From NCBI GenBank assembly GCA_964449235.1, contig CAYVAX010000003.1, positions 1 to 51,872 on the forward strand: a DNA stretch of 51,872 nt, given 5' to 3'. Each line of letters begins with the position of its first letter. The first letter of the stretch is position 1. This document shows positions 5-37,965 of this stretch, in pieces. This DNA is from an uncultured Candidatus Saccharibacteria bacterium (lineage in GTDB: Bacteria; Patescibacteriota; Minisyncoccia; RBG-13-40-8-A; JAUWHN01). The position numbers were made by a program, and so were the translations under genes. The notes under the pieces were generated by a model. It was not told where the DNA came from and did no database searches. It saw only the letters and a list, made by a program, of their open reading frames with translations.

Positions 5-1135
5 TTAAATTTCATAAACTTTTTTATAGCGTTGAAATGCAGACTTCTTTTCTTTGTTGGTTATTTTACTTTTTTTAATCCCCTGCTCAATAATTCCTAA
101 AGTTTTATCATAGACACGCCTATTAATCGAAAAAGGGGTTCCATCTTTGCCCCCCATAGCAAACGAATATCTGGCCGGATCCTGATAAGAAGGCTTTGCT
201 CCGTAAATTAATTCTGAAACTAATGACAATGCTCTGACAGTCATTGGGCCTACTCCTTTAGTCATCAATAGCTGCTCAAAATTTTTCGGAGTTTGTTCAT
301 GGGCTTGGTATAAAATCTTTTCCAAATATTTGCTTTTACTAAAATTTAAATCTCCAGTTAATTTCGGCAAAACATCATCTCCAGGCATATTTAATTTTTT
401 AAACAGGCTGGATTGACCGGTTTGTTTTTCCCGAATAAGCTTTAGATCTTTCATCAATGTTCTGTAACCATCCTTAACTAATTCCGTACTAACCTTTTTA
501 TTTTCAGCACTTGTTTTCGAAACAAGATTTAAAGGTTTTAATTTTAAATCTGAAGAAATGCCAGTATGAGGTTCTTCAATAAAATCATTAATACCTTTAG
601 AAAACCAATGATATCTTCGGGCTTGAGAATGTTGTTCGTTCATTCCCTGCTGAATTACTGTCCAGCTCCCAGCCTTGGTAAATAAGAAATTGTGATGATA
701 AAGCTGAAATCCGTCCTGAATAGTAGCATTGTCTACCTTGGCACTGATTTTTGAAGAATAAACAAGCTTATCCGCTTGATCTTGAGAAAAAGAAAGCTTG
801 TCTGCCCATTGAATAATTTGATTAGGTGTTTTTCGAGAGGTTTTCCCTTTTCCTCCGCAAATAAAAAGTCCTATTTCATCTTCCATCCCTCGGATACCTT
901 CTTTAAGAGCAGCAGTAACAGTAGTAGTCAAACCACTGGAATTCCAATCGAATGCCAGTACGCAACCCAAGGATTGAAACCAAGTGGGATCAGAAATCCG
1001 TTGTAAAAATTCTTCAGCGCCAAATTCTTCAACAATCGCTCTCACAATGCCTCGAGAGAGTTTTGTCATTCGTTCAAATAACCACTTAGGACAAGTGCCA
1101 TAATCTAATGGAAAACTAGCGATTCCGGTTTTCAT
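5..1135 (-). CDS. DUF763-family protein (function unknown)
   Basis: 376-aa ORF. The N-terminal string FPLDYGTCPKWLFERM..IVEEFGAEEFLQRISDPTWFQSLGCVLAFDWNSSGLTTT matches the DUF763 signature as I remember it. Confidence 0.7.
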   Translation of the reverse strand: MKTGIASFPLDYGTCPKWLFERMTKLSRGIVRAIVEEFGAEEFLQRISDPTWFQSLGCVLAFDWNSSGLTTTVTAALKEGIRGMEDEIGLFICGGKGKTSRKTPNQIIQWADKLSFSQDQADKLVYSSKISAKVDNATIQDGFQLYHHNFLFTKAGSWTVIQQGMNEQHSQARRYHWFSKGINDFIEEPHTGISSDLKLKPLNLVSKTSAENKKVSTELVKDGYRTLMKDLKLIREKQTGQSSLFKKLNMPGDDVLPKLTGDLNFSKSKYLEKILYQAHEQTPKNFEQLLMTKGVGPMTVRALSLVSELIYGAKPSYQDPARYSFAMGGKDGTPFSINRRVYDKTLGIIEQGIKKSKITNKEKKSAFQRYKKVYEI

Positions 1136-1206
1136 GTTTCTTTTTGTTTTTATTCGCGCACTTTTTAGCTATAAACCCGCTGGGAGTTCTATAAGCCGTC
1201 TTCCCT

Positions 1207-1383
1207 TTATGGGTTTTTTTGGATGCGTACTTTTTCATAATCAGTTCTTAAACTTTGTTGTTCAATAAATTTATTAAAACTATTAACGCTCTTAAAGATG
1301 GTAATCATGAAGATGATTACTACGATTGAAATAATTGCAAGAGCAACTTTGGTTTCTAATTGAACAAGTAAAATATTGCGCAT
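1207..1383 (-). CDS. small single-pass membrane peptide (58 aa), hypothetical
   Basis: Below the ORF-track cutoff. ATG at 1383 lies 2 nt after the rtcB stop. It reads MRNILLVQLETKVALAIISIVVIIFMITIFKSVNSFNKFIEQQSLRTDYEKVRIQKNP, with TAA at 1207-1209. It has one hydrophobic helix and no homology claim. Confidence 0.3.
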   Translation of the reverse strand: MRNILLVQLETKVALAIISIVVIIFMITIFKSVNSFNKFIEQQSLRTDYEKVRIQKNP

Positions 1384-1385
1384 AA

Positions 1386-2822
1386 TTATTCTCCTTTAAT
1401 TACTGCCAATGGCTTTAAGCGAGCAACTTTTTTGGATAACCCTGCTTGATGGACAACTTCAATCACGTCATCAATGTTTTTATAAGCCAGAGGAGCTTCT
1501 TCGGCAATTCCCCGCATAGAACGACATTTAACCAAGATCCCTTGTTGTTTTAATTGTTTGACCACTTGTTCTCCTCTATTTTTTTTCATTGCTGCGTGAC
1601 GGGACATTGCCCGGCCAGCGCCGTGGCAAACAGTGTGCCATGCTTCTTTTGAAGCTTCTGTCCCGGCCATGATATATGAAGGAGTTCCCATTGATCCCGG
1701 AACTATTACTGGCTGACCCACCTGCTTATATTTTTCAGGAATTTCAGGATGCTGAGGAGGAAATGCTCGAGTAGCCCCTTTTCTATGAACAATTAATTTT
1801 ATTCTCTGTCCATCAACTTCATACTCTTCAATCTTGGCTATATTGTGAGCAACATCATAAAGTAATTTAAGGCCCGCTTTTTTCCCCAGTACTTTCTTCC
1901 AAGCTTTTCTAATATAATAGGTTGTCATATGTCTGTTCGACCAAGCGAAATTGCAAGCAGCTGACATTGCTTTAAAAAATCTCTGGCCTTCCGGAGAATT
2001 GAATGGCACGCAGGCTAACTCTCTATCTGGCAACTTTATGTTATATTTTGATAGAGCTTTCATAACTACTTTCAAATAATCTGTACAATTCTGATGACCA
2101 AGCCCTCTAGATCCGGTATGTATCATTACTACTACCTGGTCCTTAAATAATCCAAAAGTCTTAGCTGTTTCCTTGTCAAAAATTTCGTCAACTCTTTCCA
2201 AGGAACAAAAATGATTGCCGCTACCCAAAGTTCCAAGTTGATCTCGTCCTCTATTTTTGGCATGTATCGAAACCATAGAAGTATCAACTTGTTCTAGTTT
2301 TCCTTTTTCTTCACAATTTTCAATATCTTCCTTTTCTCCGTATCCTTGTTTAACTAAATAGGGTACACCGCCTTCTAAAACTCGCTCAATCTGTTCAACT
2401 GATAACTTTGCTTGTCTTCCTCTCCCTAGTCCCGAAGGAACCTCCCTTTGCATTTCTGTAGCTATTTTATCTAAAAACGATGTAATATCCTTAACAAAAT
2501 ACTCTGTTTTCAGTATTCTGATTCCGCAATTTTGATCATATCCCACGAATCCAGGTGAAATTACTCCATCGGGTAGCTTCATTGCTCCCACACCTCCAAT
2601 TGGCGGACCGTAGCCCTGATGGCAATCGGGCATAGCTATAGCATAGTTTATAATTTCCGGCAGTGTCGTGCTATTTACCAGTTGCACTAAAGCTTTTTCC
2701 TCTATATCTCTCCATATTTTATCTGAGGCATAAATACGTGCCGGCACTCGCATATCTTTCCTATAACTTCTAGGAATTTCCCGCAAATAATTATTAACTT
2801 TTACAAACTTATCTTTTATCAT
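1386..2822 (-). CDS. rtcB: RNA 3'-phosphate/2',3'-cyclic phosphate ligase RtcB (archaeal-length form)
   Basis: 478 aa. RtcB landmarks present: PDCHQGYGPPIGGV, GSGNHF, HTGSRGLGHQ, PGSMGT, CHGAGR. Its start overlaps the upstream stop as ATGA. Confidence 0.95.
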   Translation of the reverse strand: MIKDKFVKVNNYLREIPRSYRKDMRVPARIYASDKIWRDIEEKALVQLVNSTTLPEIINYAIAMPDCHQGYGPPIGGVGAMKLPDGVISPGFVGYDQNCGIRILKTEYFVKDITSFLDKIATEMQREVPSGLGRGRQAKLSVEQIERVLEGGVPYLVKQGYGEKEDIENCEEKGKLEQVDTSMVSIHAKNRGRDQLGTLGSGNHFCSLERVDEIFDKETAKTFGLFKDQVVVMIHTGSRGLGHQNCTDYLKVVMKALSKYNIKLPDRELACVPFNSPEGQRFFKAMSAACNFAWSNRHMTTYYIRKAWKKVLGKKAGLKLLYDVAHNIAKIEEYEVDGQRIKLIVHRKGATRAFPPQHPEIPEKYKQVGQPVIVPGSMGTPSYIMAGTEASKEAWHTVCHGAGRAMSRHAAMKKNRGEQVVKQLKQQGILVKCRSMRGIAEEAPLAYKNIDDVIEVVHQAGLSKKVARLKPLAVIKGE

Positions 2823-3616
2823 ATCTTTGCTTTGTTGTTTCTAAGACGCCACAATCTCATCTTAACGCTTCTTTCAGTTCTTTTAAGATGATTACAGCTT
2901 TCTTCTAAGGTATGGCTTAAGATATATTTATCTTGTTGATCATCCCAAAATTTTTGGAAAACTCTTTTCAGATCCTTTGGTCTCTTCCATTTTAACACTG
3001 TTTTTGCATTTCTCAATTTTCGTTTGAGTGCCAAGCAATTTGGGTAATATAAATAGTTTATAAACTGCTGAGCTCTTTCTCTGTTAACCATTATATTATA
3101 AATATTATCTCTCGTATTTCTGTTTAGCCTTTTTCTTTCTCCCGTAATCTTCTCAATGATAACGAGCAAGTAATTTTTCAAATCTTCACTTTTAACTGTC
3201 AAACTAGCAAAAGGAACATTCTTAGCTGTAGTGCCCACACTGCCATCTCCATCTAATAATCCCCTAATGTAGTCTTTTTTACAAAAATCACTTTCGGGAG
3301 GAGAAACTATTTCTGATTTTTTACCGCAAGGAAGTCCTAAATTGTTAATTTCTTTGCGAAAATTCCAATTATATATGCTAAAAATATAGCTCCGGTGATT
3401 CTTTTTAAAATTTGTATCTCTGTTTCTTGATTTTATTGAACAATAAATAGAAGAAAATAAATTTTTAAATGACTTTAATATATGTAAATCTCTTTCACCC
3501 ACTTCAATTTCTAATTTCCCTCTATTCCTAGTAGATTTCCTTAGCGTGCCATCAGCTTGCGTAAATCCAAAAAAATACGAATGCTCAGGAATTTTAAGGT
3601 TTATATATTTCCCCAT
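2819..3616 (-). CDS. free-standing double-motif LAGLIDADG homing endonuclease with C-terminal HTH-like tail
   Basis: 265 aa. Two LAGLIDADG-type motifs (YFFGFTQADGT and YIRGLLDGDGSV). The C-terminus RTERSVKMRLWRLR resembles a sigma-r4/LuxR-like helix-turn-helix. No intein splicing blocks are present. Confidence 0.85.
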   Translation of the reverse strand: MGKYINLKIPEHSYFFGFTQADGTLRKSTRNRGKLEIEVGERDLHILKSFKNLFSSIYCSIKSRNRDTNFKKNHRSYIFSIYNWNFRKEINNLGLPCGKKSEIVSPPESDFCKKDYIRGLLDGDGSVGTTAKNVPFASLTVKSEDLKNYLLVIIEKITGERKRLNRNTRDNIYNIMVNRERAQQFINYLYYPNCLALKRKLRNAKTVLKWKRPKDLKRVFQKFWDDQQDKYILSHTLEESCNHLKRTERSVKMRLWRLRNNKAKI

Positions 3617-3644
3617 AAATTTTAGTTATAAATTATACTAATTA

Positions 3645-3653
3645 ATTATACCA
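3645..3653 (-). promoter_or_regulatory. extended -10 promoter element (TGGTATAAT) for the endonuclease-rtcB unit
   Basis: The minus strand reads GTGGTATAAT about 29 nt upstream of ATG 3616. The -35 is weak. The same 10-mer occurs at the tyrS leader promoter. Confidence 0.45.
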
Positions 3654-3669
3654 CTTTATAGAAACAAAT

Positions 3670-3704
3670 AAAAAAGTAGGGGTGATTAATTTCCCGCCCA
3701 CTAC
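3670..3704 (-). terminator. intrinsic terminator downstream of the archease gene
   Basis: Minus strand: GUAG(U)GGG, a 14-nt loop, CCCCUAC, then UUUUUU. Confidence 0.55.
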
Positions 3705-3807
3705 TAATATATTTTATTTTTATCGTATTCTCTGCTTACCTATTTCAGAGGCTAATCTAAACCTTCTTTTAAAACCAAGTCGTGTTAATACATTTATTTT
3801 ATTATGT

Positions 3808-4215
3808 TTATACATCAAACAATATATCTACTTGATAAATATTATTTTTCTTTTTAATTTCCACATCGTGATAAGTTGCTGCTTTAATATCCTCACCGAA
3901 AGATTCAATTTTATTTCCCTCTAATTCTCCCTGTAATTGGCTGTCGGAAAAGTTTTTAAATTTAATATCATTATATACCTCTCGATTAGTTTCAGTTAAA
4001 TACAAAACTTCATTTAAAAAATCAATTAACAACGCATTTAAATCCAAAGAGTTCACTTCTATTTTCCGACACACAGATTTTCCTTTTCCGCTGAATTTCA
4101 AAATTGCTGTCATCCCTTTAACTGCATTCAAAAATAATTCCTGTTTAGTGTTACCGAAAACTCTGATTTTAGTATCAGCAGTATGAGGTAAAATTTTAAA
4201 TTTTTGGTTATTCAT
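3808..4215 (-). CDS. archease (RtcB activator family)
   Basis: 135 aa. The N-terminal FKILPHTADTKIRVFG matches the archease HTAD motif. The C-terminal KAATYHDVEI is also typical. It lies near rtcB. Confidence 0.85.
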   Translation of the reverse strand: MNNQKFKILPHTADTKIRVFGNTKQELFLNAVKGMTAILKFSGKGKSVCRKIEVNSLDLNALLIDFLNEVLYLTETNREVYNDIKFKNFSDSQLQGELEGNKIESFGEDIKAATYHDVEIKKKNNIYQVDILFDV

Positions 4216-5497
4216 AAAGTTCTTGAAGTTCTTCCCGGGTCACTTTGCGATCATCCCAGGATTTTTTTTGAGAACCAATAACTAAAGTCTGTTCGGTTCC
4301 CTTGCCTAAAATTAACACTAGATCGTCAGGTTTTGCAGATTTCAAAGCTGTTTTAATTGCTAATCGGCGATCAGCTATTTTTTTCACTTCGGAATGGCCC
4401 TTCATTCCTTTTTGAATATCTTTTAAAATCTGATCTGGATTTTCGTCATAAGGATCTTCGTTGGTTAAAATAACTAAATCTGAATATTTATCGGCGATTT
4501 TTCCTAGATCCGGGCGTTTCCATTTATCCCTTCCTCCGCCAGCAGAACCAAAAACAGAAATTATTCTTTGATTTTTGAATAAATTTCTTGCTAATTCAAA
4601 GACTTTTTTAAAAGAGTCCGGAGTGTGGGCCAAATCAATAATTACTTTAAATTTTTGCCTCTGATCAATGAATTCCATTCGTCCGGGAATAGTTTTAATC
4701 CTTTGTAAGACCTGGCTGATAATCTCCGTTTTTATCTTTTGAGAAAGAGCAAGGCAAATGGCAAATGAGATGTTGTATAAATTAAACTTGCCTAACAGCG
4801 GTGATTCAAATTTTAAATTATTTGCTGAAAATTCTATTCCCTGAGAAGATAATTTGTAATCAGTAATTTTTAAAAAATAATCAATGCATTCGGACCGGCG
4901 TTCTAATTTTGGATTTAAACTATATCCATATTTTTTATTAACCCCGGGCTCTAAAAAATATTTCACGTTCGGATCATCAAGATTGTATATCCCTATTCCA
5001 TTCTTTTGTTTAGCTGTTTTTTTAAATAACTTAAGTTTAGCTTTGCGATAATTTTCAAATCCCCCGTGAGCTTCTAAATGCTCGGGAGCTAAATTAGTAA
5101 ATCCGGCAACATCAAAATCAATAAATTTATGACGAAATTGTTTAATACCTTCGGAAGTAACTTCTAGCAAGGCGTGAGTACAGTTTTGTTTTACCATCTT
5201 GGCTAATAATTTTTGAATCAAAAATCTTCCGGGCATAGTCATATGGTAAGGATTAAGCCATTCCCGGGATCCGATTTTAAGGGTAAGGGAGGAAATCCAC
5301 CCCACTTTATATCCACTCTTTTCTAAAATTTTTCCACTCAAAACTACTCCTGTTGATTTTCCTTTAGTGCCTGTGATCCCGATTACAGTTAGTTTTTTAG
5401 AAGGAAACCCATATATCAACGCGCCTAAAAATGCCCAGCAAAAATGATACCAGCTAATAATAAATTCGGGAACAATTCTCTTTAGTAATGATTTCAT
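4208..5497 (-). CDS. Mur ligase family protein, MurE-like, lacking the N-terminal UDP-binding domain
   Basis: 429 aa. GITGTKGKST P-loop, TNLAPEHLEAHG, VFGSAGGGRDKWKRP, TNEDPYDENP and LGKGTEQ are colinear with MurE. The first ~35 aa are hydrophobic (IISWYHFCWAFLGALIYGF). Confidence 0.8.
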   Translation of the reverse strand: MKSLLKRIVPEFIISWYHFCWAFLGALIYGFPSKKLTVIGITGTKGKSTGVVLSGKILEKSGYKVGWISSLTLKIGSREWLNPYHMTMPGRFLIQKLLAKMVKQNCTHALLEVTSEGIKQFRHKFIDFDVAGFTNLAPEHLEAHGGFENYRKAKLKLFKKTAKQKNGIGIYNLDDPNVKYFLEPGVNKKYGYSLNPKLERRSECIDYFLKITDYKLSSQGIEFSANNLKFESPLLGKFNLYNISFAICLALSQKIKTEIISQVLQRIKTIPGRMEFIDQRQKFKVIIDLAHTPDSFKKVFELARNLFKNQRIISVFGSAGGGRDKWKRPDLGKIADKYSDLVILTNEDPYDENPDQILKDIQKGMKGHSEVKKIADRRLAIKTALKSAKPDDLVLILGKGTEQTLVIGSQKKSWDDRKVTREELQELYE

Positions 5498-6360
5498 TTA
5501 AATTTCTTAATTAATTTGTAAGCTTGATACCATCCGAATTTAAAAATCAAATCATAACCCGAAGGATAAACCCTTAAACAATGTTTAAAATTCTGCTTGC
5601 AAAATCCTGTTTTAAACCGGGTAACTCCGGGCCATTTTTCTTGATCGATTCCCCAAAAATCGTACTCAATACAACTTTGCTTCTTGGCTTTCCTAATCTG
5701 CTCCCATTGTAATAAATGAGGAGCCATTAATTTTCGATATTTGTAATCAGAAGTTCCGTGAAGATAAATAGCGGTTTGATTGTAAAACAGGACTATATTC
5801 GCAGCAATAACTTTCTGATTGTAAATCGCCACAAATAACTCTAATCCTGGAATATCCAGCATTCTCTGGTAATACTGTTGAGGATAAGCTTTGAATTGAT
5901 CGCGCTCGGTTGTTTTCTGAAGTAATTTCCAGAAATATTCAAATTTGGTTTTATCGGATTTAACTTTTACTCCTTTTCTTCTTGCTAATCGGATATTATA
6001 CCTCGTCTTGTGATGCATCTGTTCTAATAGTTCTTTCTCAGGTTTTGTAATATCTAGAATCAAACTTTTCCGGGGCTGAATATTTGTTGACTGTTTAAAT
6101 TTATTCTTTTTATCAATTTTTTCCGGTTTTTCAGTCGGTTCTAATTTCAAAAAAATTGAATTTTCCTTTTTAGCAATATTTTTGATCTGCTGTAAAAACT
6201 GTTCAGATAAAAAATCTCCTCCGCAGCGCGGGGAATAAAGATAGCTTTTTTTAAACGGAAGCTTATGTTCAATAATCAACAGTCCATTTATTCTCCAGGT
6301 TTTACGACCCAATGATTGTTGAAACTTCTCCCAGTGCTTGGATTGTAAAAAAGAATTCAT
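5494..6360 (-). CDS. FemAB-family peptidoglycan aminoacyl/peptidyl transferase
   Basis: 288 aa. The start MNSFLQSKHWEKFQQSLGRKTW and the overall pattern are typical of FemX/FemAB-family proteins. ATGA overlap with the Mur ligase gene. Confidence 0.75.
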   Translation of the reverse strand: MNSFLQSKHWEKFQQSLGRKTWRINGLLIIEHKLPFKKSYLYSPRCGGDFLSEQFLQQIKNIAKKENSIFLKLEPTEKPEKIDKKNKFKQSTNIQPRKSLILDITKPEKELLEQMHHKTRYNIRLARRKGVKVKSDKTKFEYFWKLLQKTTERDQFKAYPQQYYQRMLDIPGLELFVAIYNQKVIAANIVLFYNQTAIYLHGTSDYKYRKLMAPHLLQWEQIRKAKKQSCIEYDFWGIDQEKWPGVTRFKTGFCKQNFKHCLRVYPSGYDLIFKFGWYQAYKLIKKFK

Positions 6361-6931: not shown

Positions 6932-7054
6932 ACCTTTATTTTAACTTTTATTCGGGTTTGAATCAAGAAAGTGGATACAGGGCTATTGCAAAATTTTAAG
7001 AGTATGATACTCTACAATGATAAGTACTTTTAAAATTTAAAAAGGAGGAAACCG

Positions 7055-8134
7055 ATGAAAATAGCGGTATTAGGATCTGGAAATGGCGGAATTGCCATTG
7101 CTGGTTATTTAGCAATTAAAAATTTTGAGATAAATCTTTACAGCCCTTTTTGTGAAGAAATTGCACCTCTCAGACGCAATAAGGTTATTCAACTGCAAGG
7201 AAAAATTAAAGGATCCGGAAAATTGAATTTAGTTACCAACAACCTTGAACAAGCAATCGAAAATGCAGAATTAATTATGGTCGTTGCCCCTGCTTTTGCC
7301 CACCAAACAATCGCCAAAGATTGCGCGCCGTATTTAAAGAACGGCCAAGTCATTATTCTCAATCCCGGACGAACTGGCGGAGCATTGGAATTCAATCAAA
7401 CTCTCAAGAACATGAACGTAACCGCAAATGTAACTATTGCTGAAGCTCAAACTCTAATTTATGCCTGCCGAAAAGTAGGCGCTAACCGGGCAATAATCCA
7501 TGGGATTAAAAATAAAGTTTCTTTGGCAGCATTGCCTGCAACAAAAACTTCAGAAGTTATTAATAAAATCCGGACCGGATATCCTCAATTCATAGCTGCT
7601 AAAAATGTACTGGAAACTAGCTTTGATAATATCGGAGCAGTTTTCCATCCAGCAATAATGTGGGCTCATCGAGATCGAATTAGTCGCAAACAGGATTTCT
7701 ACTTTTACCAAATCAGCAAACAGACTGCGAACATTCTGGAAGAAATAGACAAAGAAAGATTAGAAATTGCAGCCGGATTTGGCATTAAATTAAAATCAGC
7801 TGAACAATGGCTAACCGAGACATACAATATTAAAGGAGCAAACCTATATCAGAAATTGGTTAACAATCCTGCCTATGCAAATATTAAAGCTCCTAAAAGC
7901 ACTAATGTAAGACAGGTTCTGGAAGATGTTCCTTACGGCTTAGTGCCAATTGTCCTGTTTGGTAAATTGGAAAATCTTCCGCGAACAAATTCAGCTTTGA
8001 CTGTAAACGCCTGGAAGATGGTATTGAAAAAAGATTTTTGGAAGCAGGGTCGAAATTTAGAACGTTTAGGCCTTGCAAATATGAATATTCGAGAAATAAA
8101 GAAGTTTGTGAACCGAAAGGAAGGCATAAAATGA
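7055..8134 (+). CDS. NAD(P)-dependent octopine/nopaline (opine) dehydrogenase-family oxidoreductase
   Basis: 359 aa. Rossmann start MKIAVLGSGNGGIAIAGYLA. A central TIAEAQTLIYACR and FDNIGAVFHP pattern is typical of this family. Strong SD (AAAGGAGGA) lies 7-8 nt upstream. Confidence 0.75.
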   Translation: MKIAVLGSGNGGIAIAGYLAIKNFEINLYSPFCEEIAPLRRNKVIQLQGKIKGSGKLNLVTNNLEQAIENAELIMVVAPAFAHQTIAKDCAPYLKNGQVIILNPGRTGGALEFNQTLKNMNVTANVTIAEAQTLIYACRKVGANRAIIHGIKNKVSLAALPATKTSEVINKIRTGYPQFIAAKNVLETSFDNIGAVFHPAIMWAHRDRISRKQDFYFYQISKQTANILEEIDKERLEIAAGFGIKLKSAEQWLTETYNIKGANLYQKLVNNPAYANIKAPKSTNVRQVLEDVPYGLVPIVLFGKLENLPRTNSALTVNAWKMVLKKDFWKQGRNLERLGLANMNIREIKKFVNRKEGIK

Positions 8135-11100
8135 GTGAACAAAAAGATAAACCAAACAATTCTCCTAAAAAAAGGATAATTGGAAGTTCAGTAAAGCCCT
8201 GTGTTCATGATCTGGGAATTAGAAATTTTATAAAAGCAATGAAAAGTGTAGACTCCAGTTGTTTTGGTTTTGATCTCGGAGTTGCTGATATTGATAAAAT
8301 TATTGCAGTTCTTCAAGAAACTAAACGACCGGGGTTAATTATGGGAATATCTTTTCGATTAGGAGTTACAGGACTTAAGAAAACCATTGAAGAGTTTATT
8401 GAGAAGATTTATAAAGCAAAACTGGACCCTAACAGGAGTGGGATAAGATATGCATTTGGAGGAACTGTTCCCGGAGCAAATCTTATTCGTGCAATGACTG
8501 GCCAGCCGATCAGAAAAGACCCGTTTGCCAAGCAAGAACAGAAATACGACTTAGAAAAAGTTATTCAGGAATGCAAAGGAAATTCTAAATTTAAAAATTT
8601 CTTTGAATTAATTGCAGATACTAAAACCAAAAGCGAAGAAATTGTAGAATTTGCCCAGCCAAGCAAGGTAAAGGCAAGAAAAGAAACTGAGCCTGCTCAA
8701 AATTTAGTTGATCGCATTAAGCAAGTAAGAGAAAAAGAAAATCGAGCATTGCGCAGAGTGCATATCGGAATTGCAGGAAAATTAAAAAACACCATAAGAG
8801 ATATTGAGAAGATTACCAAAGAGAATGTCTGGGATATCATCTCTATTGCTCCTGACCAGTGGGCACAGCAATATCTCTGGCACTTTATCAATCAGGAAAA
8901 GGATCCTAAAAAATATCCATTTGCTCAAGGCGGATGCCCGATTAGATCCAAGCAGGATTTGATTGATCTTAAAAAAGTTTCTCAATGTGGAAATCATCCC
9001 TTAATGCGAATCTATTCCGGAACTGATAAGCTTATAGAGATCGGAAAGATATTTGATGAAACAATTAATATCTGTTTTCCGGCTGTACCTATTTTCTGGT
9101 ACAACCAATTAGATGGTCGAGGCCCAATAGCGATTAAAGAAGGAATTGCCGAACACCAGAAAGTTATTAAATTCTGGGGAAAACGAAATAAACCTGTAGA
9201 GATTAATGACCCTCATCAATGGCAATTGCGAGAATCCAGTGATGAAATTTATGTGATTGATCACCTTCTCTGCGCATTAACTGCAAAGCAGAATGGTGTT
9301 AAAAATTACATCATGCAAATGATGTTTAATTTGCCACCGAAAATAAGCCCTAAAAATGACTTAGCAAAAATGAAAGCTGCTTATGAATTGATCCGATTGC
9401 TCGAAGACAAAAATTTTAAAATTATCAAAGAAACTCGCGGAGGCTTATCTTCATTCCCGGATGATCTTGACGAAGCAGCTGGGCATCTTTCCGGAGGAGC
9501 GATGTTGCAACTGCACATGAATCCGGACATCATCCATATTGTCAGTAAAAGCGAAGCCCATCATGAAGCAGGAGCTAATGATATTATTGAGAGCTGTAAA
9601 CATATTGAGGGTATTGAAAAAATGTTTAAATCCGGCGCACCCAATATTTGGAAAGACAGAGAAATCCAGAAAAGAAAATTAGAATTAAAACGAAATGCCG
9701 TATACACTTTGCTAAATATCGCCCTTATTGGTGAATATCAGGGAGAATACAAGGAAAAAACTGCTATTAAAAATTTTGATCAATTTTTAACAGATGAAAA
9801 GGAATGTTCAAAAGTATTAAAAAGCTTGTTTAACTCTAAGAATTATCGTAATAAGAAATGCAACCTGGTTAATTCCGATGTCTTGGATTTATGCTTGCGA
9901 ACTGGACTGTTGCAGGCGCCCGTACTTGCAGATATTGATAAAAGATACACAATGGTAACTAAATGTGAAACCGAAGTTATCAACGGAGCTTGCAAAACAG
10001 TAGAATTTAATGGAGAAAAAGTTGATAATGAAATCCAAAGAGTTAAAAAAGCAATGCAGTATCTTGAAGAGCAAATCATGGGGAAAAAGGTTCGTCACAA
10101 AGGAGAAAAACTTGGTCGCGGCATTTCCAAGGAGAAAGTTTTTAAAGCTAGAAATGCTATTGGAATCCCTAAGTTTCATAACAAAAAAGTGCTGGTTGCC
10201 GATTTCGGAAGCACATTCACTAAGCTAGCTTCATTTAATACCAATAACCTTCGGGATATAAAATTCAATTATGTTCCCACTATTGTTGATAATCTAGAAA
10301 AATGCCTGGCTCATGGGCTAAGTACAATGAATAAAAGAATTAAAATCGATAACCTCAGAGGAGAAGAATTAACATCAGCGCTGGCAGAACAATTAAGTAA
10401 ATACGATCTAAAATTGGCCTCCAGTAGCGCTAAGGGGGGACTAAAAACAGTTACGGTCGCAGCAAGTAGTGAAAGTCATAAACCAGCAGAACTAGCCGCA
10501 TTTAAAGCTGGAGGAAAAATATTAGCCTCTTATACCGGCAAGTTAACTAAAGAACAGGCTCAAAAGATTTACCAAAAAGATAAGCCAGAATTGATCTTGC
10601 TTACCGGCGGAGTTAATCGCGGAGGAAACACAGATATTGTTGAGCATAACGCCAGACAAATCGCAGAGTATGCTAAACTAGCTGAATATGCCAAATACGG
10701 TGTTCCTGTGGTTTATGCTGGTACTACTGACGCTCATAGACAGGTTGCTCACATCTTTGCAGAAAAAAATATCTATGTAAAATGGGCAAACAATGTAATG
10801 CCGGAAATCAACGAATTTGATATTGACACTGTGGAAGGTGCCGTTAATAAATTATTCCGAGAGATTATTGTCAAAGGAAAAGGATTTGACAAAGTTCAAC
10901 AACATTTTGATTTAGGATTGCTTCCAACACCAGTAGCAGCCTTATGGGGAATTAACCTTTTGGCCTGCGGTTATGGAGAAAAACATCTTGGATTAAAAGA
11001 CATCTTTGCTATTGACATCGGCGGATGTACAACTGATGTATTTAGAGTTCTTTTCCGAAAGAACCCTCTTTACGAAGGAAAAGATAATCGCCGGACCAGA

Positions 11101-11772
11101 GACTTAGAACCTAACTTACCTCCAGTTACCAGAAGAGTAGAAGGAAAATTTGGTCTCAGCTTTAATGCAATAAACCTGACCGATGTTAACCGCTGGAAAG
11201 AAGGTAAATCTTCAAAGTTTATTAATGAACAATTCCAGAAAATTCATTCTCGATATGCTGGAAAAGATAATAGCGTTCTTGCCAAATTTTTCAATCCCAA
11301 AAGAAAACAACCGATTGATGTTGCTGAATATCTGAAATACCTTTCTAGCAATCCCGGATTTATTCCTAAAACTAAACAAGAAAGCACAGTAAGCGCACTA
11401 ATTGCAAACGAGATATTAAAGGCTTGTAGTAAAAATAACTGTGGAACTATCGAACCCACAGAGACTTATTATCTACAGAAAGGCATTAACTTTTTAAATA
11501 TGCCCTGTACCGTACTGCTCATTGGAGGAACTGTTTATCATAAATGTAAAGAAAATAGCGCTGATTCTATAAGAGATTTAGAAATTATTGCTAAAGGAGT
11601 GCTATTCAATGAAGAAGAGCCAGATATTCTTAGACCTGATTACCGCAACGCTACTATACTCGCTGATAAAAATTACTTTATTTCCATTATCGGCGGACTG
11701 TACGGCAAGCTAGATCCAAAACGAGCTTTAAAAATAATGAAGAATAATTTGAAAAAAATAGAAATAAAATAA
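8131..11772 (+). CDS. fusion protein: cobalamin-binding (GlmS-like) + methylaspartate-mutase E-like TIM barrel + MutL/GlmL-like ASKHA ATPase
   Basis: The ORF track starts at 8038. I place the start at ATG 8131, which overlaps the upstream TGA as ATGA. That gives 1213 aa. Motifs: IIGSSVKPCVHDLG, then GlmE-like landmarks, then VLVADFGSTFTK and AIDIGGCTTDV (see findings). Confidence 0.7.
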   Translation: MSEQKDKPNNSPKKRIIGSSVKPCVHDLGIRNFIKAMKSVDSSCFGFDLGVADIDKIIAVLQETKRPGLIMGISFRLGVTGLKKTIEEFIEKIYKAKLDPNRSGIRYAFGGTVPGANLIRAMTGQPIRKDPFAKQEQKYDLEKVIQECKGNSKFKNFFELIADTKTKSEEIVEFAQPSKVKARKETEPAQNLVDRIKQVREKENRALRRVHIGIAGKLKNTIRDIEKITKENVWDIISIAPDQWAQQYLWHFINQEKDPKKYPFAQGGCPIRSKQDLIDLKKVSQCGNHPLMRIYSGTDKLIEIGKIFDETINICFPAVPIFWYNQLDGRGPIAIKEGIAEHQKVIKFWGKRNKPVEINDPHQWQLRESSDEIYVIDHLLCALTAKQNGVKNYIMQMMFNLPPKISPKNDLAKMKAAYELIRLLEDKNFKIIKETRGGLSSFPDDLDEAAGHLSGGAMLQLHMNPDIIHIVSKSEAHHEAGANDIIESCKHIEGIEKMFKSGAPNIWKDREIQKRKLELKRNAVYTLLNIALIGEYQGEYKEKTAIKNFDQFLTDEKECSKVLKSLFNSKNYRNKKCNLVNSDVLDLCLRTGLLQAPVLADIDKRYTMVTKCETEVINGACKTVEFNGEKVDNEIQRVKKAMQYLEEQIMGKKVRHKGEKLGRGISKEKVFKARNAIGIPKFHNKKVLVADFGSTFTKLASFNTNNLRDIKFNYVPTIVDNLEKCLAHGLSTMNKRIKIDNLRGEELTSALAEQLSKYDLKLASSSAKGGLKTVTVAASSESHKPAELAAFKAGGKILASYTGKLTKEQAQKIYQKDKPELILLTGGVNRGGNTDIVEHNARQIAEYAKLAEYAKYGVPVVYAGTTDAHRQVAHIFAEKNIYVKWANNVMPEINEFDIDTVEGAVNKLFREIIVKGKGFDKVQQHFDLGLLPTPVAALWGINLLACGYGEKHLGLKDIFAIDIGGCTTDVFRVLFRKNPLYEGKDNRRTRDLEPNLPPVTRRVEGKFGLSFNAINLTDVNRWKEGKSSKFINEQFQKIHSRYAGKDNSVLAKFFNPKRKQPIDVAEYLKYLSSNPGFIPKTKQESTVSALIANEILKACSKNNCGTIEPTETYYLQKGINFLNMPCTVLLIGGTVYHKCKENSADSIRDLEIIAKGVLFNEEEPDILRPDYRNATILADKNYFISIIGGLYGKLDPKRALKIMKNNLKKIEIK

Positions 11773-11779
11773 ACAAGCA

Positions 11780-11815
11780 AAGAAGGCTTCAAAAAAAGAA
11801 GCCTTCTTTTTTTTA
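11780..11815 (+). terminator. intrinsic terminator
   Basis: AAGAAGGCUUC, loop AAAAAAA, GAAGCCUUCUU, then a U-run, 8 nt after the stop of the fusion gene. Confidence 0.85.
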
Positions 11816-15994: not shown

Positions 15995-16782
15995 TTTGGA
16001 CAAAAATATGTTCCCCGGCCACCAACAGTAATTCTTTTTATAGGTGTGCCGCAGACTAAACAAGGCTTTCCTTGCCGACCATATACTTTGTGCTTAAGAG
16101 TATAATTTCCAGCTTGTCCGGATAACTGCACGTATTCATCAATCGATGATCCTCGATGCAAAGTAGCTTGTTTTAAAACTTTTTTTAATTCTTTAAATAA
16201 TAATTGTTTTTCCTTGTCAGACAAAGAATTGACTTTTTTTTCAGGGTGAATTTTGGCTCTAAATAGTGCTTCTGCAGCATAAAGATTTCCCACTCCGGCA
16301 ATAAAAGATTGGTCCATTAGTAGAGATTTAATTTTCTTCTTTCTTTTAGAGAGCTTTTGTTTAAATTTTTGAAGAGTTAAATCTGATGGCTCCGGGCCTA
16401 GATTTTTAATAAACGGCAATAATTTCCAATTATCAACTATTTTCAACTCTCCAAGCAATCGCTGGTCATTAAAATCTAAAATTTTTTCATTAGAAAATTT
16501 AAAGCTAACTCTGCTTTTTTCAGCATTCCCGGGATAAATTAGTTGGCCGGTCATTCTGAGATGAATAGTTAAAAATTTATTTGAAGATAATTTTATAATC
16601 AAAAGCTTGCCCTTCCTTAAAACCGATTTTATAGTTTTTCCGGTTAATTGTTTGCTAAATTCGCTCTTGGTTAGCCCCTTGATTACCCTGGGGTTATTAA
16701 TAATCACTTGTTTAATCTTGTTTCCGATAACTGCTTTTCCTAGCTCTTGTTTAATTGTCTCCACTTCTGGTAATTCCGGCAT
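15979..16782 (-). CDS. mutM: formamidopyrimidine-DNA glycosylase
   Basis: 267 aa. MPELPEVE N-terminus, and a C-terminal zinc finger CLVCGTPI...GRGTYFCPKCQ. Confidence 0.92.
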   Translation of the reverse strand: MPELPEVETIKQELGKAVIGNKIKQVIINNPRVIKGLTKSEFSKQLTGKTIKSVLRKGKLLIIKLSSNKFLTIHLRMTGQLIYPGNAEKSRVSFKFSNEKILDFNDQRLLGELKIVDNWKLLPFIKNLGPEPSDLTLQKFKQKLSKRKKKIKSLLMDQSFIAGVGNLYAAEALFRAKIHPEKKVNSLSDKEKQLLFKELKKVLKQATLHRGSSIDEYVQLSGQAGNYTLKHKVYGRQGKPCLVCGTPIKRITVGGRGTYFCPKCQRK

Positions 16783-18079
16783 ATGGTTGCATTTCTCCCC
16801 AATTATCCCCTATGTTTATATCCACCACCAGAGGAATGTTGGAAATTACTTTTACTTGTTTAAAAATTGGATGCTTTAAAATATTTTCCATGGTTTGCTT
16901 GATAATTTTTGTTGCTTTTTCAAGTTTATCCTGCTCAATTTCAAAAACTAATTCATCATGAACCTGAAGCAGCATTTTTGCTGACGCTGGTAATTTTTTA
17001 TCTAATTCCACCATTGCTACTTTAATAATCTCGGCACTGGTTCCTTGAATGGGCATATTAATCGCCATTCTTTCTGAACTTTGACGAAGATAATAATTTG
17101 AAGAATTAATTTCCGGCAAGTAACGTTTTCGATCTAAGATTGTTTTTACATAACCTCTTTTTTGAGCTTGTTTCTTGGTTTGCTGGATATAGTTATAAAC
17201 TCCGGAAAAGTTATTCATATATTCTTCAATAAACTTTTTAGCTTGCTGATAAGTAATTCCCGCTGCTTCTGCAAATCCAATCGCGCTCATCCCGTAAAGA
17301 ATGCCAAAATTTAATGCTTTTGCCTCATATCTCATTTTAGGAGTAACCTTGTTTATAGATACATTATTCACCTCCGCAGCTGTGATTTTGTGAATATCCT
17401 CGCCGCGTTCAAAAGCATTGATCATTTTCCTATCTTCAGCTAAATAAGCAGCAATCCGAAGTTCGATTTGTGAATAATCAGCAGAAAGAAGTTGATTTCC
17501 TTTTTTAGCAATAAAGCATTTTCTGATTTCTTTGCCCCATTCTCCCCGCACAGGAATGTTTTGCAAGTTAGGGTCAGAAGAAGAAATGCGCCCAGTGCTA
17601 GTTCCTAGTTGATGATAGTTGGTGTGTATTCTTTGTTGATTATCAACTTGGTCCGGAAGAGGATCAATGTAGGTAGTCTTTAATTTCATTAATTCCCGAT
17701 ACTTTAAAATCAGTTCAATTATATTGTGCTTTGATTTTAATTTCTGAAGCTCAGAAGCAGCAGTAGAGATTACCCCTCCAGGAGTTTTTTTAAGACCTTG
17801 CGTGGAAATCTTTAATTTTTTAAATAAAATCTGAGAAAGTTGCTGGGAAGAATTAATATTAAATTTTGTATCTGCCAATTTATATATCTCTTTTTCTAAT
17901 TCCTGAAGGCGGTGAGATATTTTTTTAGAAAGCTTTTTTAAAAAAGCAATGTCTAACTTGATTCCTCTTGTTTCCATTTTTTTCAAAACCGGTAATAATT
18001 TTTTTTCTAATTCATAAATAGCTCCAGGAAAAATTCCTTGCCGATAAGCGTCTTGGATCTGTTTTAGCCTTTGTTCCAT
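16751..18079 (-). CDS. polA: DNA polymerase I, polymerase domain only
   Basis: 442 aa. Family A motifs ADYSQIELRIAAYLA, RYEAKALNFGILYGMSA, LQVHDELVFE. There is no 3'-5' exonuclease domain. It is in frame with the upstream 5'-nuclease ORF. Confidence 0.9.
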   Translation of the reverse strand: MEQRLKQIQDAYRQGIFPGAIYELEKKLLPVLKKMETRGIKLDIAFLKKLSKKISHRLQELEKEIYKLADTKFNINSSQQLSQILFKKLKISTQGLKKTPGGVISTAASELQKLKSKHNIIELILKYRELMKLKTTYIDPLPDQVDNQQRIHTNYHQLGTSTGRISSSDPNLQNIPVRGEWGKEIRKCFIAKKGNQLLSADYSQIELRIAAYLAEDRKMINAFERGEDIHKITAAEVNNVSINKVTPKMRYEAKALNFGILYGMSAIGFAEAAGITYQQAKKFIEEYMNNFSGVYNYIQQTKKQAQKRGYVKTILDRKRYLPEINSSNYYLRQSSERMAINMPIQGTSAEIIKVAMVELDKKLPASAKMLLQVHDELVFEIEQDKLEKATKIIKQTMENILKHPIFKQVKVISNIPLVVDINIGDNWGEMQPYAGITRSGDN

Positions 18080-18094
18080 AATATATTTTAAATC

Positions 18095-28150: not shown

Positions 28151-28154
28151 CTGC

Positions 28155-37726: not shown

Positions 37727-37965
37727 ATTTTTGAAGAATAATAATTATTAGTTTCTTAAATTTAAATAAATATTATTATTATTAAGGATTAAATTTCTGG
37801 GGAAAAGCTAATAATTTAGCTTAGCTAACCATACTTTTATAGATAAGAAATTGAGGAGATATTGTGTAGAAGATTGGTAATAAAATAGGATAAAATTATA
37901 GTTATTGAATTAACTTAAAATTACTACCTGTTTCTCCACAATTTTTAAATAAACTTATTAACAAG
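37727..37965. other. dnaA-dnaN intergenic region, possible oriC part
   Basis: 239 nt and very AT-rich. One 8-of-9 DnaA box TTCTCCACA at 37932-37940, plus weaker matches. Confidence 0.3.

Follow-up and report, generated by a model that had tools for sequence, protein, structure and literature searches.

The window, i.e. the whole stretch of 51,872 nucleotides that was analysed, harbors a two-gene operon on the forward strand, flanked by ruvA (minus strand) and rpsT. An opine dehydrogenase (ODH) gene is followed by a gene for one long polypeptide with three modules, termed S, E and L. The features are as follows.

7041-7048, + strand: Shine-Dalgarno sequence AAAGGAGG, 6 nt upstream of the ODH start codon ATG 7055 (direct sequence reading)
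7055-8134, + strand: opine dehydrogenase (ODH) gene, 359 aa (PF02317, 1BG6 match)
8131-11772, + strand: single-chain S-E-L gene, 1213 aa (gene calls)
8170-8625, + strand: S module, B12-binding Rossmann-like domain, aa ~14-165 (family profile, PF02310 in relatives, AF2 secondary structure)
8200-8217, + strand: C24-V-H26-D-L-G29, cobalamin His-ligand loop in a variant form, Cys taking the place of the Asp in DxHxxG (family conservation, profile alignment)
8740-10080, + strand: E module, GlmE-like (beta/alpha)8 barrel, aa ~204-650 (Foldseek, PF06368 in relatives, conservation in three subfamilies)
10189-11748, + strand: L module, MutL/GlmL-type ASKHA ATPase, aa 687-1206 (PF13941, NF040745, core motifs)
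11779-11815, + strand: intrinsic terminator, 12-bp stem and 7-nt loop (hairpin 11779-11809), then a T-run

The ORF list of the window gives the long reading frame as 8131-11772 (+), 1213 aa, with its ATG at 8131. An independent gene call on the identical Logan contig yielded the same 1213 aa. The start codon overlaps the ODH stop codon as ATGA (8131-8134), and GGAAGG is located ahead of it at 8119-8124. Translational coupling of the S-E-L gene to the ODH gene via this overlap is inferred from sequence alone. The first-pass annotation, made without database searches, had described this reading frame, its ATGA overlap and an isolated two-gene operon with a Shine-Dalgarno sequence in front and a terminator behind. 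These claims held when the coordinates were re-derived. Its eleven peptide landmarks were all located in the 1213-aa protein (aa 16-37, 72-78, 109-115, 267-277, 289-299, 387-396, 440-449, 472-483, 617-631, 687-698 and 960-970).

Domain architecture of the 1213-aa protein

The chain comprises a B12-binding Rossmann domain, a GlmE-like TIM barrel and a MutL/GlmL ATPase, in this order. An hmmscan against Pfam, named as a check in the first-pass annotation, was not significant for PF02310 and PF06368; PF13941 was matched, as was PF02317 by the ODH. Since the window protein alone remains below threshold, the S and E assignments rest on a family profile, Pfam matches of homologues and the predicted fold.

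The S module carries the landmarks S74-x-R76-L77 and F109-G-G111. Taken alone, the window protein scores 14.4 bits against PF02310 (cut-off 32.1; E 0.034), and 26 of 28 family members match that domain at E<=0.01. A profile of the 28 sequences matched corrinoid and B12 domains in the PDB, i.e. 4jgi (4.5e-10), MttC (5e-8), MetH (2e-5) and GlmS (1e-4). In the ligand loop, C24, H26 and G29 are invariant in 72 sequences, and V25 is kept in at least 90%; H26, G29, R76 and G111 are invariant in the family. The profile alignment places Cys24 on the Asp of the DxHxxG motif of 4jgi, MttC and MetH. Cys24 is invariant in the window subfamily and in a subfamily with S and E modules only, thus the Asp position of the His-Asp relay is not kept there. 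A third subfamily (25% identity) retains the canonical D-x-H-T-x-G, with Asp in 17 of 18 members. This retention and the invariance of H26, G29, R76 and G111 suggest that the loop is under selection as a cobalamin ligand loop. Cobalamin binding itself is inferred, without experimental or ligand-level evidence. Aminomutases anchor PLP through a Lys in the Rossmann domain; the family alignment showed no conserved Lys in this domain.

For the E module, no match of PF06368 (Met_asp_mut_E) to the window protein was obtained. The domain is matched by 17 of 28 family members at E<=0.01, and its gathering score of 26.6 bits is passed by only some relatives (P0056, 37.9 bits; P0071, 28.9 bits). The AlphaFold model (pLDDT 85.5, pTM 0.81) identified glutamate mutase epsilon as top PDB match in Foldseek (6h9e_B/1cb7_B; E 2e-13, TM 0.67 on target). 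Other AdoCbl isomerases followed, with lysine 5,6- and ornithine 4,5-aminomutases as the next structures (E 4e-9 to 4e-8). Identity to GlmE is only 13%, and phmmer searches of PDB sequences with the 1213-aa protein and with P0056 did not find GlmE. An hhalign comparison of the family alignment with GlmE was colinear over ~360-380 columns and all eight strands, but its E values of 0.21 and 0.48 fall short of significance. When GlmE was replaced by a profile of 20 of its close homologues, a default run returned only a spurious 10-column match; the homologues retrieved were at least 78% identical to one another, too alike for a useful profile.

Polar barrel residues kept across the superfamily are R209, H211, Q246, R293, Y295, D328, R330, E357, N359, R367, D371, Q396, R436, H469 and E475. 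Arg66, Arg100, Arg149 and Glu171 are the substrate residues of GlmE (1CCW/1I9C). In the low-confidence hhalign alignment (E 0.2-0.5), the three arginines correspond to H211, Q246 and Y295; Glu171 is opposite a gap. Two residues ahead of the positions aligned to Arg66 and Arg149 are R209 and R293, respectively. As far as this alignment can be trusted, free glutamate may not be the substrate. The mutase is uncharacterised and is termed glutamate-mutase-like; it is not demonstrably a glutamate mutase.

The L module matches PF13941 (MutL) with E 5e-73 at aa 687-1206, covering profile positions 1-449 of 450. NF040745 was matched at 240 bits. The NCBIfam names matched are GlmL and the ornithine-degradation Or-4 protein, and the scores stay below the equivalog cut-offs (240 vs 475; 158 vs 204). 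By these scores the module is a MutL family member, not a GlmL equivalog. The ASKHA motifs DFGSTFTK (aa 691-698) and DIGGCTTD (aa 962-969) are present, and their core residues (DFGST, K; D-x-GG-x-TTD) are invariant in 18 fused homologues. The AF2 model of this domain is moderate (pLDDT 73.6). Foldseek returned weak matches to ASKHA folds and to a flavodoxin-like insert, and no reactivase structure was among them. A MutL accessory is not known to us beside anything other than AdoCbl mutases. No MutL gene was found within 8 kb of the S-E-only and third-subfamily loci.

The first-pass annotation had proposed the module order S-E-L, which held, by Pfam for MutL and by family profile, homologue matches and AlphaFold model for S and E. 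Its complete MutL/GlmL-type ATPase was confirmed by the full profile and the intact motifs. The GlmE-like barrel was supported by AlphaFold/Foldseek and by PF06368 in relatives, but not at the level of a direct Pfam match. The GlmE substrate Arg/Glu residues, whose conservation it had proposed to check, are not conserved in the sole, low-confidence alignment. The GlmS-like S module held in part, the B12 motif being the invariant C-V-H-x-x-G and not DxHxxG.

Opine dehydrogenase partner and conservation of the cassette

The window ODH matches PF02317 with E 5e-32 (111.5 bits) and Arthrobacter CENDH (1BG6) over its full length with E 3e-65. The catalytic triad is present as H198/R286/D291, equivalent to His202/Arg292/Asp297 of ArODH. 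An N-terminal GxGxxG, PF02317 and the triad together satisfy the criteria of the opine dehydrogenase family. Among partner ODHs of the mutase genes, the His/Arg/Asp triad was found in at least 71 of 73.

The specificity signature for acidic amino acids is likewise present. Arg and Gly at ArODH positions 111 and 198 have been shown by mutagenesis to switch ODHs to a preference for L-Asp/L-Glu and pyruvate (Telek et al., 2024; PMC10787698). The window ODH has R106 and G194 at these positions. Arg occurs at position 111 in 70 of 71 partners and Gly at position 198 in 71 of 71, and the pair is present in 5/5 partner ODHs of the third subfamily. The characterised metagenomic ODHs (mODHs) of that study share 37-42% identity with the window ODH. 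Two of them, mODH-45 and mODH-47, share 70-80% identity with ODH genes that immediately follow S-E genes. L-Glu is accepted by the mODHs with 35-96% conversion for five of six, and Asp is converted at least as well as Glu by five of six (PMC10787698). For mODH-582, a KM of 24.8 mM and a kcat of 0.9 per s have been reported with Asp (PMC10787698), values suggesting that Asp is a surrogate substrate. In the supplement of that paper, 3-methylaspartate was not seen on the substrate list.

The mutase-ODH pair is a widespread conserved cassette with strict gene linkage. Of 84 non-redundant loci, 79 have an ODH gene beside the mutase gene, adjacent on the same strand in 77 and within 1 kb in two more; the remaining five are truncated by contig ends. 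A stop/start overlap of the two genes is frequent. An ODH alignment across all types was too divergent for a locus search. In the reverse direction, a mutase gene was present at 55 of 62 informative metagenome loci picked by ODH motifs alone. About 11% of R/G-type ODHs lack a mutase, and these adjoin genes for a Na+/glutamate symporter, a TRAP dicarboxylate transporter and the enolase superfamily. The linkage spans three subfamilies and occurs in Chloroflexota, Bacillota, Asgard archaea, cultured Thermoanaerobacterales and polysaccharide-synthesis clusters; in the third subfamily it recurs inside polysaccharide clusters. The mutase family is present in at least 555 species-level genomes and forms 248 clusters at 50% identity (E<=1e-30), and the pair is found in hundreds of genomes of bacteria and Asgard archaea. 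Methylaspartase was not a neighbour among the recurrent neighbour families profiled over the 84 loci; the ODH is found in that place. The contexts are mixed, i.e. ABC importers, glycan clusters and stand-alone units, therefore the direction of flux is not fixed by context.

Two other assignments were considered and dropped. A cell-wall role had been suggested by Mur ligase/Fem, Ddl, D,D-carboxypeptidase and AsnB genes near a few loci, but these neighbours are not recurrent, and Asgard archaea carry the cassette too. The ~620-aa subfamily was not retained as 2-methyleneglutarate mutase; its members are unnamed or called 'cobalamin-binding protein' and are located in glycan clusters.

The host genome is of the CPR/Patescibacteria type. 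CPR bacteria generally lack cobamide synthesis. No cobalamin riboswitch was matched in an Rfam scan of the 52-kb window, and no B12 uptake or adenosyltransferase genes were detected among most of its larger ORFs, which were profiled.

Regarding the first-pass annotation, an octopine/nopaline-dehydrogenase-family partner held by PF02317 and 1BG6, and so did the ODH as sole operon partner instead of methylaspartate ammonia-lyase. The close, biochemically characterised relatives preferring acidic amino acids (PMC10787698) are an addition. The metabolically minimal host was confirmed as CPR-type, with B12 genes absent from the profiled window ORFs. The pairing is not peculiar to this genome, as the survey of 84 loci shows. 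That no single-chain S-E-L mutase or such a pairing has been characterised held in the literature searched, including glutamate mutase, AdoCbl, methylaspartate and Asgard, where no published description of either was found.

Proposed function and rival readings

The two genes may form one functional cassette, in which the 1213-aa protein would act as an adenosylcobalamin-type radical isomerase. In the N-terminal Rossmann domain, His26 is predicted to ligate the cobalamin in the 'base-off/His-on' mode. The substrate bound by the TIM barrel would be a poly-carboxylate, an acidic amino acid, on which the barrel would perform a 1,2 carbon-skeleton shift like that of glutamate mutase. The fused MutL ATPase may serve as an in-cis reactivase swapping the damaged cofactor. 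The co-translated ODH, a putative NAD(P)H enzyme for acidic L-amino acids and pyruvate, would tie the mutase to an N-(1-carboxyethyl) amino acid. In this scheme, the mutase would interconvert L-glutamate and a 3-methylaspartate-type product, and the ODH would interconvert 3-methylaspartate, pyruvate and NAD(P)H with N-(1-carboxyethyl)-3-methylaspartate. Run towards synthesis, the ODH would draw the mutase equilibrium forward, as methylaspartase does in clostridia. Run towards breakdown, the pair would convert an imported opine to pyruvate, glutamate and reduced cofactor, which would suit a fermentative CPR cell. This reading, in which an AdoCbl rearrangement of the glutamate/3-methylaspartate type is coupled to making or cleaving an N-(1-carboxyethyl) opine, is narrowly favoured, with a probability of about 0.55. 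Architecture, fold, gene linkage and ODH signature have been shown for the cassette; AdoCbl radical turnover, substrate identity, direction and the reactivase role are, like cobalamin binding, inferred.

It is possible that the mutase acts on the opine itself. The ODH would form N-(1-carboxyethyl)-L-glutamate and the B12 enzyme would rearrange the N-substituted glutamyl skeleton. The arginine claw of GlmE and Glu171, its amino-group ligand, are not conserved in the sole alignment obtained, and five Arg/Lys positions common to the three subfamilies (R209, R293(K), R330, R367, R436) are compatible with three carboxylates. The acceptance of L-Glu by the mODHs (35-96%, 5/6) also fits. On chemical grounds, an N-alkyl group should leave the glycyl radical no less stabilised than it is in the mechanism of glutamate mutase. 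However, the residue mapping rests on a low-confidence alignment, and Asp conversion at or above that of Glu in 5/6 mODHs fits an aspartate-like native substrate such as 3-methylaspartate better. If true, AdoCbl enzymes would gain a new class of substrate, secondary-amine tricarboxylates. A different AdoCbl isomerase, aminomutase-like or of the 2-hydroxy/2-methylene-glutarate type, whose product is only incidentally an ODH substrate without any Glu/3-methylaspartate chemistry, appears unlikely. In its favour, the lysine 5,6- and ornithine 4,5-aminomutases are next-best structures (E 4e-9 to 4e-8), the active-site residues are, as far as they can be aligned, unlike those of GlmE, and the PF06368 matches are weak. 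Yet GlmE is both the top structure and the sole substrate-barrel Pfam family matched, the Rossmann domain has no conserved Lys, and the ODH signature points to acidic amino acids.

There is little to recommend a corrinoid methyltransferase or 'methionine synthase' using methyl-cobalamin and not radical chemistry. The B12 profile does score 4jgi, MttC and MetH ahead of GlmS, and archaeal and Anoxybacter members carry the NCBI-sourced name 'methionine synthase'. Against this, Pfam detected no methyltransferase, pterin-binding or homocysteine-binding domains, and the corrinoid helical cap domain is absent because the Rossmann domain begins at ~aa 14. The barrel matches AdoCbl isomerases throughout the Foldseek list, and MutL is fused. 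Equally remote is an ODH-family protein serving as redox or activation partner for cobalamin and not as a metabolic partner, or a Cys-variant Rossmann domain that has lost B12 binding altogether, in a protein with a function unrelated to B12. The Asp-to-Cys exchange, the absence of B12 genes from the profiled window ORFs and the general lack of cobamide synthesis in CPR bacteria could be cited for it. But triad and specificity residues are kept in essentially all partners, whose close relatives are active opine dehydrogenases, His26, Gly29 and Gly111 are invariant, and a sister subfamily has the canonical Asp.

Beyond the coupled glutamate/3-methylaspartate reading lies a bolder one, which we would sooner doubt than accept. 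It holds that the cassette belongs to an unrecognised cobalamin pathway with a new AdoCbl mutase superfamily (three subfamilies, Cys- or Asp-type loop), obligate coupling to acidic-amino-acid ODHs, and a new branched opine, such as N-(1-carboxyethyl)-3-methylaspartate, that is made or degraded, or an opine that is itself rearranged. Some bacteria would build the branched opine into surface polysaccharides, whereas Chloroflexota, Asgard archaea, Thermoanaerobacterales and the window CPR bacterium would import and ferment it.

The cassette points to an undescribed B12-dependent pathway. An additional AdoCbl-dependent isomerase family would be notable, such enzymes being seldom discovered, and this one reaches Asgard archaea, CPR, Chloroflexota and cultured, tractable thermophiles. 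Pairing with an ODH of known specificity determinants narrows the unknown function to chemistry centred on Glu, 3-methylaspartate, pyruvate, NADPH and AdoCbl. If the proposals are true, a physiological role would be given to the 'unprecedented' acidic-amino-acid ODHs, so far described only as biocatalysts. A natural single-chain mutase-reactivase, a natural Cys variant of the His-Asp cobalamin ligand relay and a minimal-genome CPR bacterium reliant on scavenged cobamide would also be at hand.

Comparison with known systems

Lysine 5,6-/ornithine 4,5-aminomutase (1XRS, 8T0V, 3KOW) and the methylmalonyl-CoA mutase family form a second structural tier (E 4e-9 to 1e-5). The design of TIM barrel and B12 Rossmann domain is common to them and the window protein, which lacks the PLP-anchoring Lys, CoA-binding features and any Pfam match to those families. 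The 2-methyleneglutarate mutase of Eubacterium barkeri has barrel and B12 domain on one chain, with a MutL-like gene nearby. An engineered GlmE-GlmS fusion from Marsh's laboratory reportedly also combines barrel and B12 domain on one chain. Neither is known to us to have MutL fused in cis or an opine dehydrogenase partner.

The window ODH shares its catalytic triad with ArODH (CENDH, 1BG6) and with mODH-45, -47, -48, -49, -55 and -582 from hot-spring metagenomes, and with these mODHs the Arg/Gly pair for L-Asp/L-Glu and pyruvate (PMC10787698). ArODH, with Ala/Asn in place of this pair, has a preference for hydrophobic amino acids. The mODHs were treated as orphan biocatalysts, and genomic context, B12 and a mutase are not mentioned in that paper (PMC10787698).

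The closest system is glutamate mutase, GlmS/GlmE with GlmL (MutS/MutE/MutL), from Clostridium cochlearium and C. tetanomorphum (EC 5.4.99.1; 1CCW, 1CB7, 1I9C, 6H9E). It has the same three modules, its barrel is the top structural match and colinear on all eight strands, and the His ligand loop is located in the Rossmann domain. The modules are three proteins in clostridia and one S-E-L polypeptide in the window, at ~13% identity. The window protein has CVHxxG instead of DxHxxG, and Arg66, Arg100, Arg149 and Glu171 are unmatched in the low-confidence alignment. In the window family, methylaspartate ammonia-lyase is absent from the recurrent neighbour families profiled, and an opine dehydrogenase is the obligate neighbour.

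Two-gene unit and host

The unit comprises the genes of an opine dehydrogenase (ODH) and of an S-E-L protein, a single chain combining a B12-binding Rossmann domain, a GlmE-like TIM barrel and a MutL/GlmL ATPase.

7041-7048, plus strand: Shine-Dalgarno sequence AAAGGAGG, 5' of the ODH ORF
7055-8134, plus strand: ODH ORF, 359 aa
Eight bases 5' of ATG 8131, plus strand: GGAAGG, preceding the S-E-L ORF
ATG 8131, plus strand: start/stop overlap ATGA with the TGA of the ODH ORF
ATG 8131 to 11772, plus strand: S-E-L ORF, co-oriented with the ODH ORF
11779-11815, plus strand: terminator 3' of the S-E-L ORF, a 12-bp hairpin followed by a T-run

The overlap, the Shine-Dalgarno sequence, the terminator and the flanking genes, ruvA (opposite strand) and rpsT, identify the pair as an isolated two-gene operon. 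This claim of the first-pass annotation held, and all its quoted peptide landmarks were located at the expected residues. Gene calls for the pair were identical on an identical Logan contig. The GC content of the cassette (~36%) is near that of the window.

The nearest named relatives of DnaA are from Candidatus Portnoybacteria, Paceibacterota and Patescibacteria (64-69% identity), and the profiled window ORFs represent housekeeping, cell-envelope and a few unassigned genes. The host is therefore a CPR bacterium. The search for cobalamin uptake and adenosyltransferase genes proposed earlier was run on the profiled window ORFs only; none of these was recognised as a gene for B12 transport or an adenosyltransferase, and the window contains no cobalamin riboswitch. 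Among 5.8 billion proteins, a single close homologue was found (74% identity, ODH fragment upstream), followed by Chloroflexota and Bacillota proteins at 42-47% identity, so that the cassette seems rare in CPR. Lateral acquisition is possible.

Further features were observed in the window. A RuvB of 774 aa (22657-24981, plus strand) has its P-loop domain interrupted by an intein with a LAGLIDADG_3 homing endonuclease. An RNA-repair-like string (5-4215, minus strand) comprises DUF763, RtcB ligase, a LAGLIDADG_3 ORF and archease; the free-standing LAGLIDADG_3 ORF (2819-3616) overlaps the RtcB start. DNA polymerase I is encoded as separate ORFs for the 5'-3' exonuclease and the polymerase domain (16751-18982, minus strand), in which no 3'-5' exonuclease domain was detected. 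The genes dnaN and dnaA (36587-39351, minus strand) adjoin a trough in GC content (24.5% at 36-38 kb), and ~36-40 kb is likely the chromosomal replication origin region. A TraG/VirB4-like P-loop ATPase of 604 aa (46911-48728, minus strand) is located amid unassigned ORFs, possibly as a remnant of type IV secretion or competence.

Domain assignment

Pfam assigned MutL to the S-E-L protein (PF13941, E 5e-73, aa 687-1206, profile covered in full) and Octopine_DH to the short protein (PF02317, E 5e-32), as had been expected for both. The C-terminal part falls into the GlmL family of NCBIfam, yet under the equivalog cut-offs. Its ASKHA motifs are invariant among 18 fused homologues compared; its AF2 model was mediocre, with weak matches to ASKHA and flavodoxin-like structures. 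The first-pass annotation had regarded the lack of a significant B12-binding or GlmE-family profile match as refuting. By direct search this is nominally the case, because the first 686 residues gave no significant Pfam match (B12-binding, E 0.034; Met_asp_mut_E, none). Direct search of PDB sequences also found nothing for this part.

More sensitive methods nonetheless rescue the S and E assignment. Residues 1-690 as query retrieved 230 relatives. A 28-member family profile matched Rossmann domains of corrinoid proteins, MetH and GlmS (4jgi, 4.5e-10; MttC, 5e-8; MetH, 2e-5; GlmS, 1e-4). PF02310 was matched by 26 of the 28 members and PF06368 by 17; the score of one homologue (P0056), 37.9 bits, exceeds the gathering threshold of 26.6. 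Modelling with AlphaFold from 72 sequences (pLDDT 85.5, pTM 0.81) gave glutamate mutase epsilon as top PDB match (6h9e_B/1cb7_B, E 2e-13, TM 0.67, 13% identity), followed by lysine 5,6-aminomutase, ornithine 4,5-aminomutase and the methylmalonyl-CoA mutase family. Since family profile, Pfam matches of relatives and predicted fold agree, the S-E-L order is real: a single chain joins a Rossmann domain of B12 type, a barrel resembling GlmE and a MutL ATPase, as first claimed.

Genetic linkage and dehydrogenase specificity

An Octopine_DH gene adjoins the mutase gene, encoding an S-E-L or S-E protein, in every locus first inspected (Chloroflexota and Bacillota MAGs, Anoxybacter fermentans, Promethearchaeota). 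When each GTDB species was represented by a single genome, relatives were found in at least 555 genomes. Among the top 80 are Anaerolineae, Bacillota, Bipolaricaulota, Atribacterota, Zixibacteria, Poribacteria and several Asgard phyla, with Thermoanaerobacter thermocopriae, Caldanaerobacter subterraneus and Tepidanaerobacter acetatoxydans as cultured strains. Among 84 non-redundant loci, the ODH gene is adjacent on the same strand in 77 and within 1 kb in two (frameshifted assemblies); in five, the contig ends on the side in question. The neighbourhood survey suggested earlier thus showed that the pairing is not unique to this genome. Searched exhaustively with a profile, 1.84 billion representative proteins yielded 248 clusters at E<=1e-30. 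The cassette is a widespread, uncharacterised mutase/opine-dehydrogenase pair, a wider finding than first supposed; B12 binding is inferred.

Three subfamilies occur. S-E-L proteins (~1200 aa) are mostly partnered by a divergent ~407-aa ODH encoded upstream, often together with an SBP_bac_5/Opp-type ABC importer and an RpiR regulator, sometimes with a peptidase C45 gene. S-E-only proteins (~545-585 aa) have a CENDH-like ODH as partner and no MutL gene within 8 kb. In the window, an S-E-L protein is paired with a CENDH-like ODH, as in a few Anaerolineae loci. In some Chloroflexota, S-E-only and S-E-L paralogues, or two ODH types, are found together in a single locus (L057, 3705-5381 and 7824-11669; L032; L053). 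The third subfamily (~600-636 aa, ~25% identity), detected by the exhaustive search, is again accompanied by an ODH gene, either overlapping or no more than 3 kb away. It is set in polysaccharide clusters with flippase, Wzy, DegT aminotransferases, glycosyltransferases, ATP-grasp ligases and an AsnB-like gene. Loci L093-L098 represent such polysaccharide or O-antigen-like clusters of Rikenellaceae, Clostridiales and marine bacteria. To our knowledge, no cobalamin-type enzyme has been described in glycan synthesis.

An ATPgrasp_ST gene directly adjoins the mutase gene in the Rikenellaceae loci L093 and L094. The window itself encodes a 7TM_transglut membrane protein, an ATPgrasp_ST+Zn_protease fusion and two more ATP-grasp genes (27491-32007, plus strand); a link of this cluster to the cassette product is conceivable. 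Cell-wall genes near the cassette are a Mur ligase and a FemAB-like gene in the window (4208-6360, minus strand), Ddl in Tepidanaerobacter (L064, 4929-6038), and AsnB with a D,D-carboxypeptidase in Caldanaerobacter (L082, 9712-12490). This proximity may be chance, because the cassette is also present in Asgard archaea.

The window ODH aligns in full length with Arthrobacter CENDH/ArODH (1BG6, E 3e-65). Its catalytic His/Arg/Asp triad (H198, R286, D291) is kept in at least 71 of 73 partner ODHs. Six ODHs from hot-spring metagenomes (mODHs) favour L-aspartate, L-glutamate and cysteate with pyruvate and NADPH, unlike all earlier ODHs; reciprocal double mutants attributed this preference to Arg at ArODH position 111 and Gly at 198 (Telek et al., 2024; PMC10787698). 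The window ODH shows the Arg/Gly pair (R106, G194); the corresponding residues of ArODH are Ala and Asn. Partner ODHs of both types carry Arg in 70/71 and Gly in 71/71 cases, third-subfamily partners in 5/5. Based on the sequences in the supplement, mODH-45 and mODH-47 share 70-80% identity with ODHs encoded directly downstream of S-E genes in Chloroflexota (L077, L087, L072); the window ODH shares 37-42% with five mODHs compared. Gene context, B12 and a mutase go unmentioned in the publication, whose supplement does not list 3-methylaspartate as substrate. Without this being realised, the ODH half of the cassette has been characterised already.

Among 80 metagenome loci selected by ODH motifs alone, a mutase gene was adjacent in 51, nearby in four and absent from seven; 18 were too short to decide. 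The mutase-less Arg/Gly-type loci are L102, L106, L109, L129, L138, L159 and L175, and neighbours were profiled in five. OCD/mu-crystallin, mandelate-racemase/enolase-superfamily, TRAP DctM (dicarboxylate) or Na+/glutamate symporter genes in L102, L106, L109 and L175 suggest alternative routes around the same acidic opine. L129 has a glycosyltransferase as sole next-door gene. The linkage of mutase to ODH is obligate, and the ODH bears an acidic-amino-acid signature.

Proposed pathway and comparison with glutamate mutase

The favoured reading, held at about 0.55, is a Glu/3-methylaspartate-type AdoCbl mutase coupled to an ODH opine step; cobalamin binding, radical chemistry and substrate are inferred. 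His26 would ligate cobalamin, AdoCbl homolysis would drive a 1,2 shift of glutamate-mutase type in the skeleton of an acidic amino acid, and the MutL module would reactivate the mutase in cis. The ODH would join the mutase substrate or product to pyruvate or free it from pyruvate. In one step, the mutase would interconvert glutamate and 3-methylaspartate. In the other, the ODH would interconvert 3-methylaspartate, pyruvate and NAD(P)H with N-(1-carboxyethyl)-3-methylaspartate. This scheme fits best because the mODHs prefer aspartate over glutamate, with poor kinetics on aspartate (mODH-582: KM 24.8 mM, kcat 0.9 per s; PMC10787698). The glutamate mutase equilibrium favours glutamate about tenfold. 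Reductive condensation would thus pull synthesis, the task of methylaspartase in clostridia. In reverse, an imported opine would yield pyruvate, glutamate and NAD(P)H. Speculatively, the contexts suit both directions, synthesis in glycan clusters and catabolism in ABC-importer operons; for stand-alone units the direction remains undetermined. The characterised ODH half makes this a concrete, testable hypothesis for what would be, if true, a new cobalamin-dependent pathway.

Possibly, the substrate of the mutase is the opine itself; a tricarboxylate would be compatible with the five conserved basic residues and with the GlmE claw, which is unmatched in a non-significant alignment. An AdoCbl isomerisation of another kind is unlikely. 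Least probable are a corrinoid methyltransferase, as the name 'methionine synthase' implies, and a non-B12 or redox-partner role, both poorly supported.

Alignment of the family with a true GlmE sequence from PDB was colinear over ~360-380 columns and reproduced the landmark pairs of the first-pass annotation, though without significance (E 0.2-0.5); a profile of close GlmE homologues brought no improvement. The substrate residues were not matched in this non-significant alignment: Arg66, Arg100 and Arg149 correspond to H211, Q246 and Y295, and Glu171 to a gap. R209 precedes the Arg66 position by two residues, as R293 does the Arg149 position. The initial observation is confirmed overall and its interpretation supported, but the S-E-L protein is not a demonstrable member of glutamate mutase proper. 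The polar barrel lining of the family is strictly conserved (R209, H211, Q246, R293, Y295, D328, R330, E357, N359, R367, D371, Q396, R436, H469, E475). The third subfamily retains these residues plus the canonical D-x-H-T-x-G. The S-E-L ligand loop is an invariant C24-V-H26-x-x-G29, in contrast to DxHxxG of glutamate mutase, with Cys24 exactly on the Asp in the profile alignment. Compared with glutamate mutase, the S-E-L protein may represent a variant AdoCbl isomerase, its AdoCbl chemistry being inferred, with a real chance of new chemistry.
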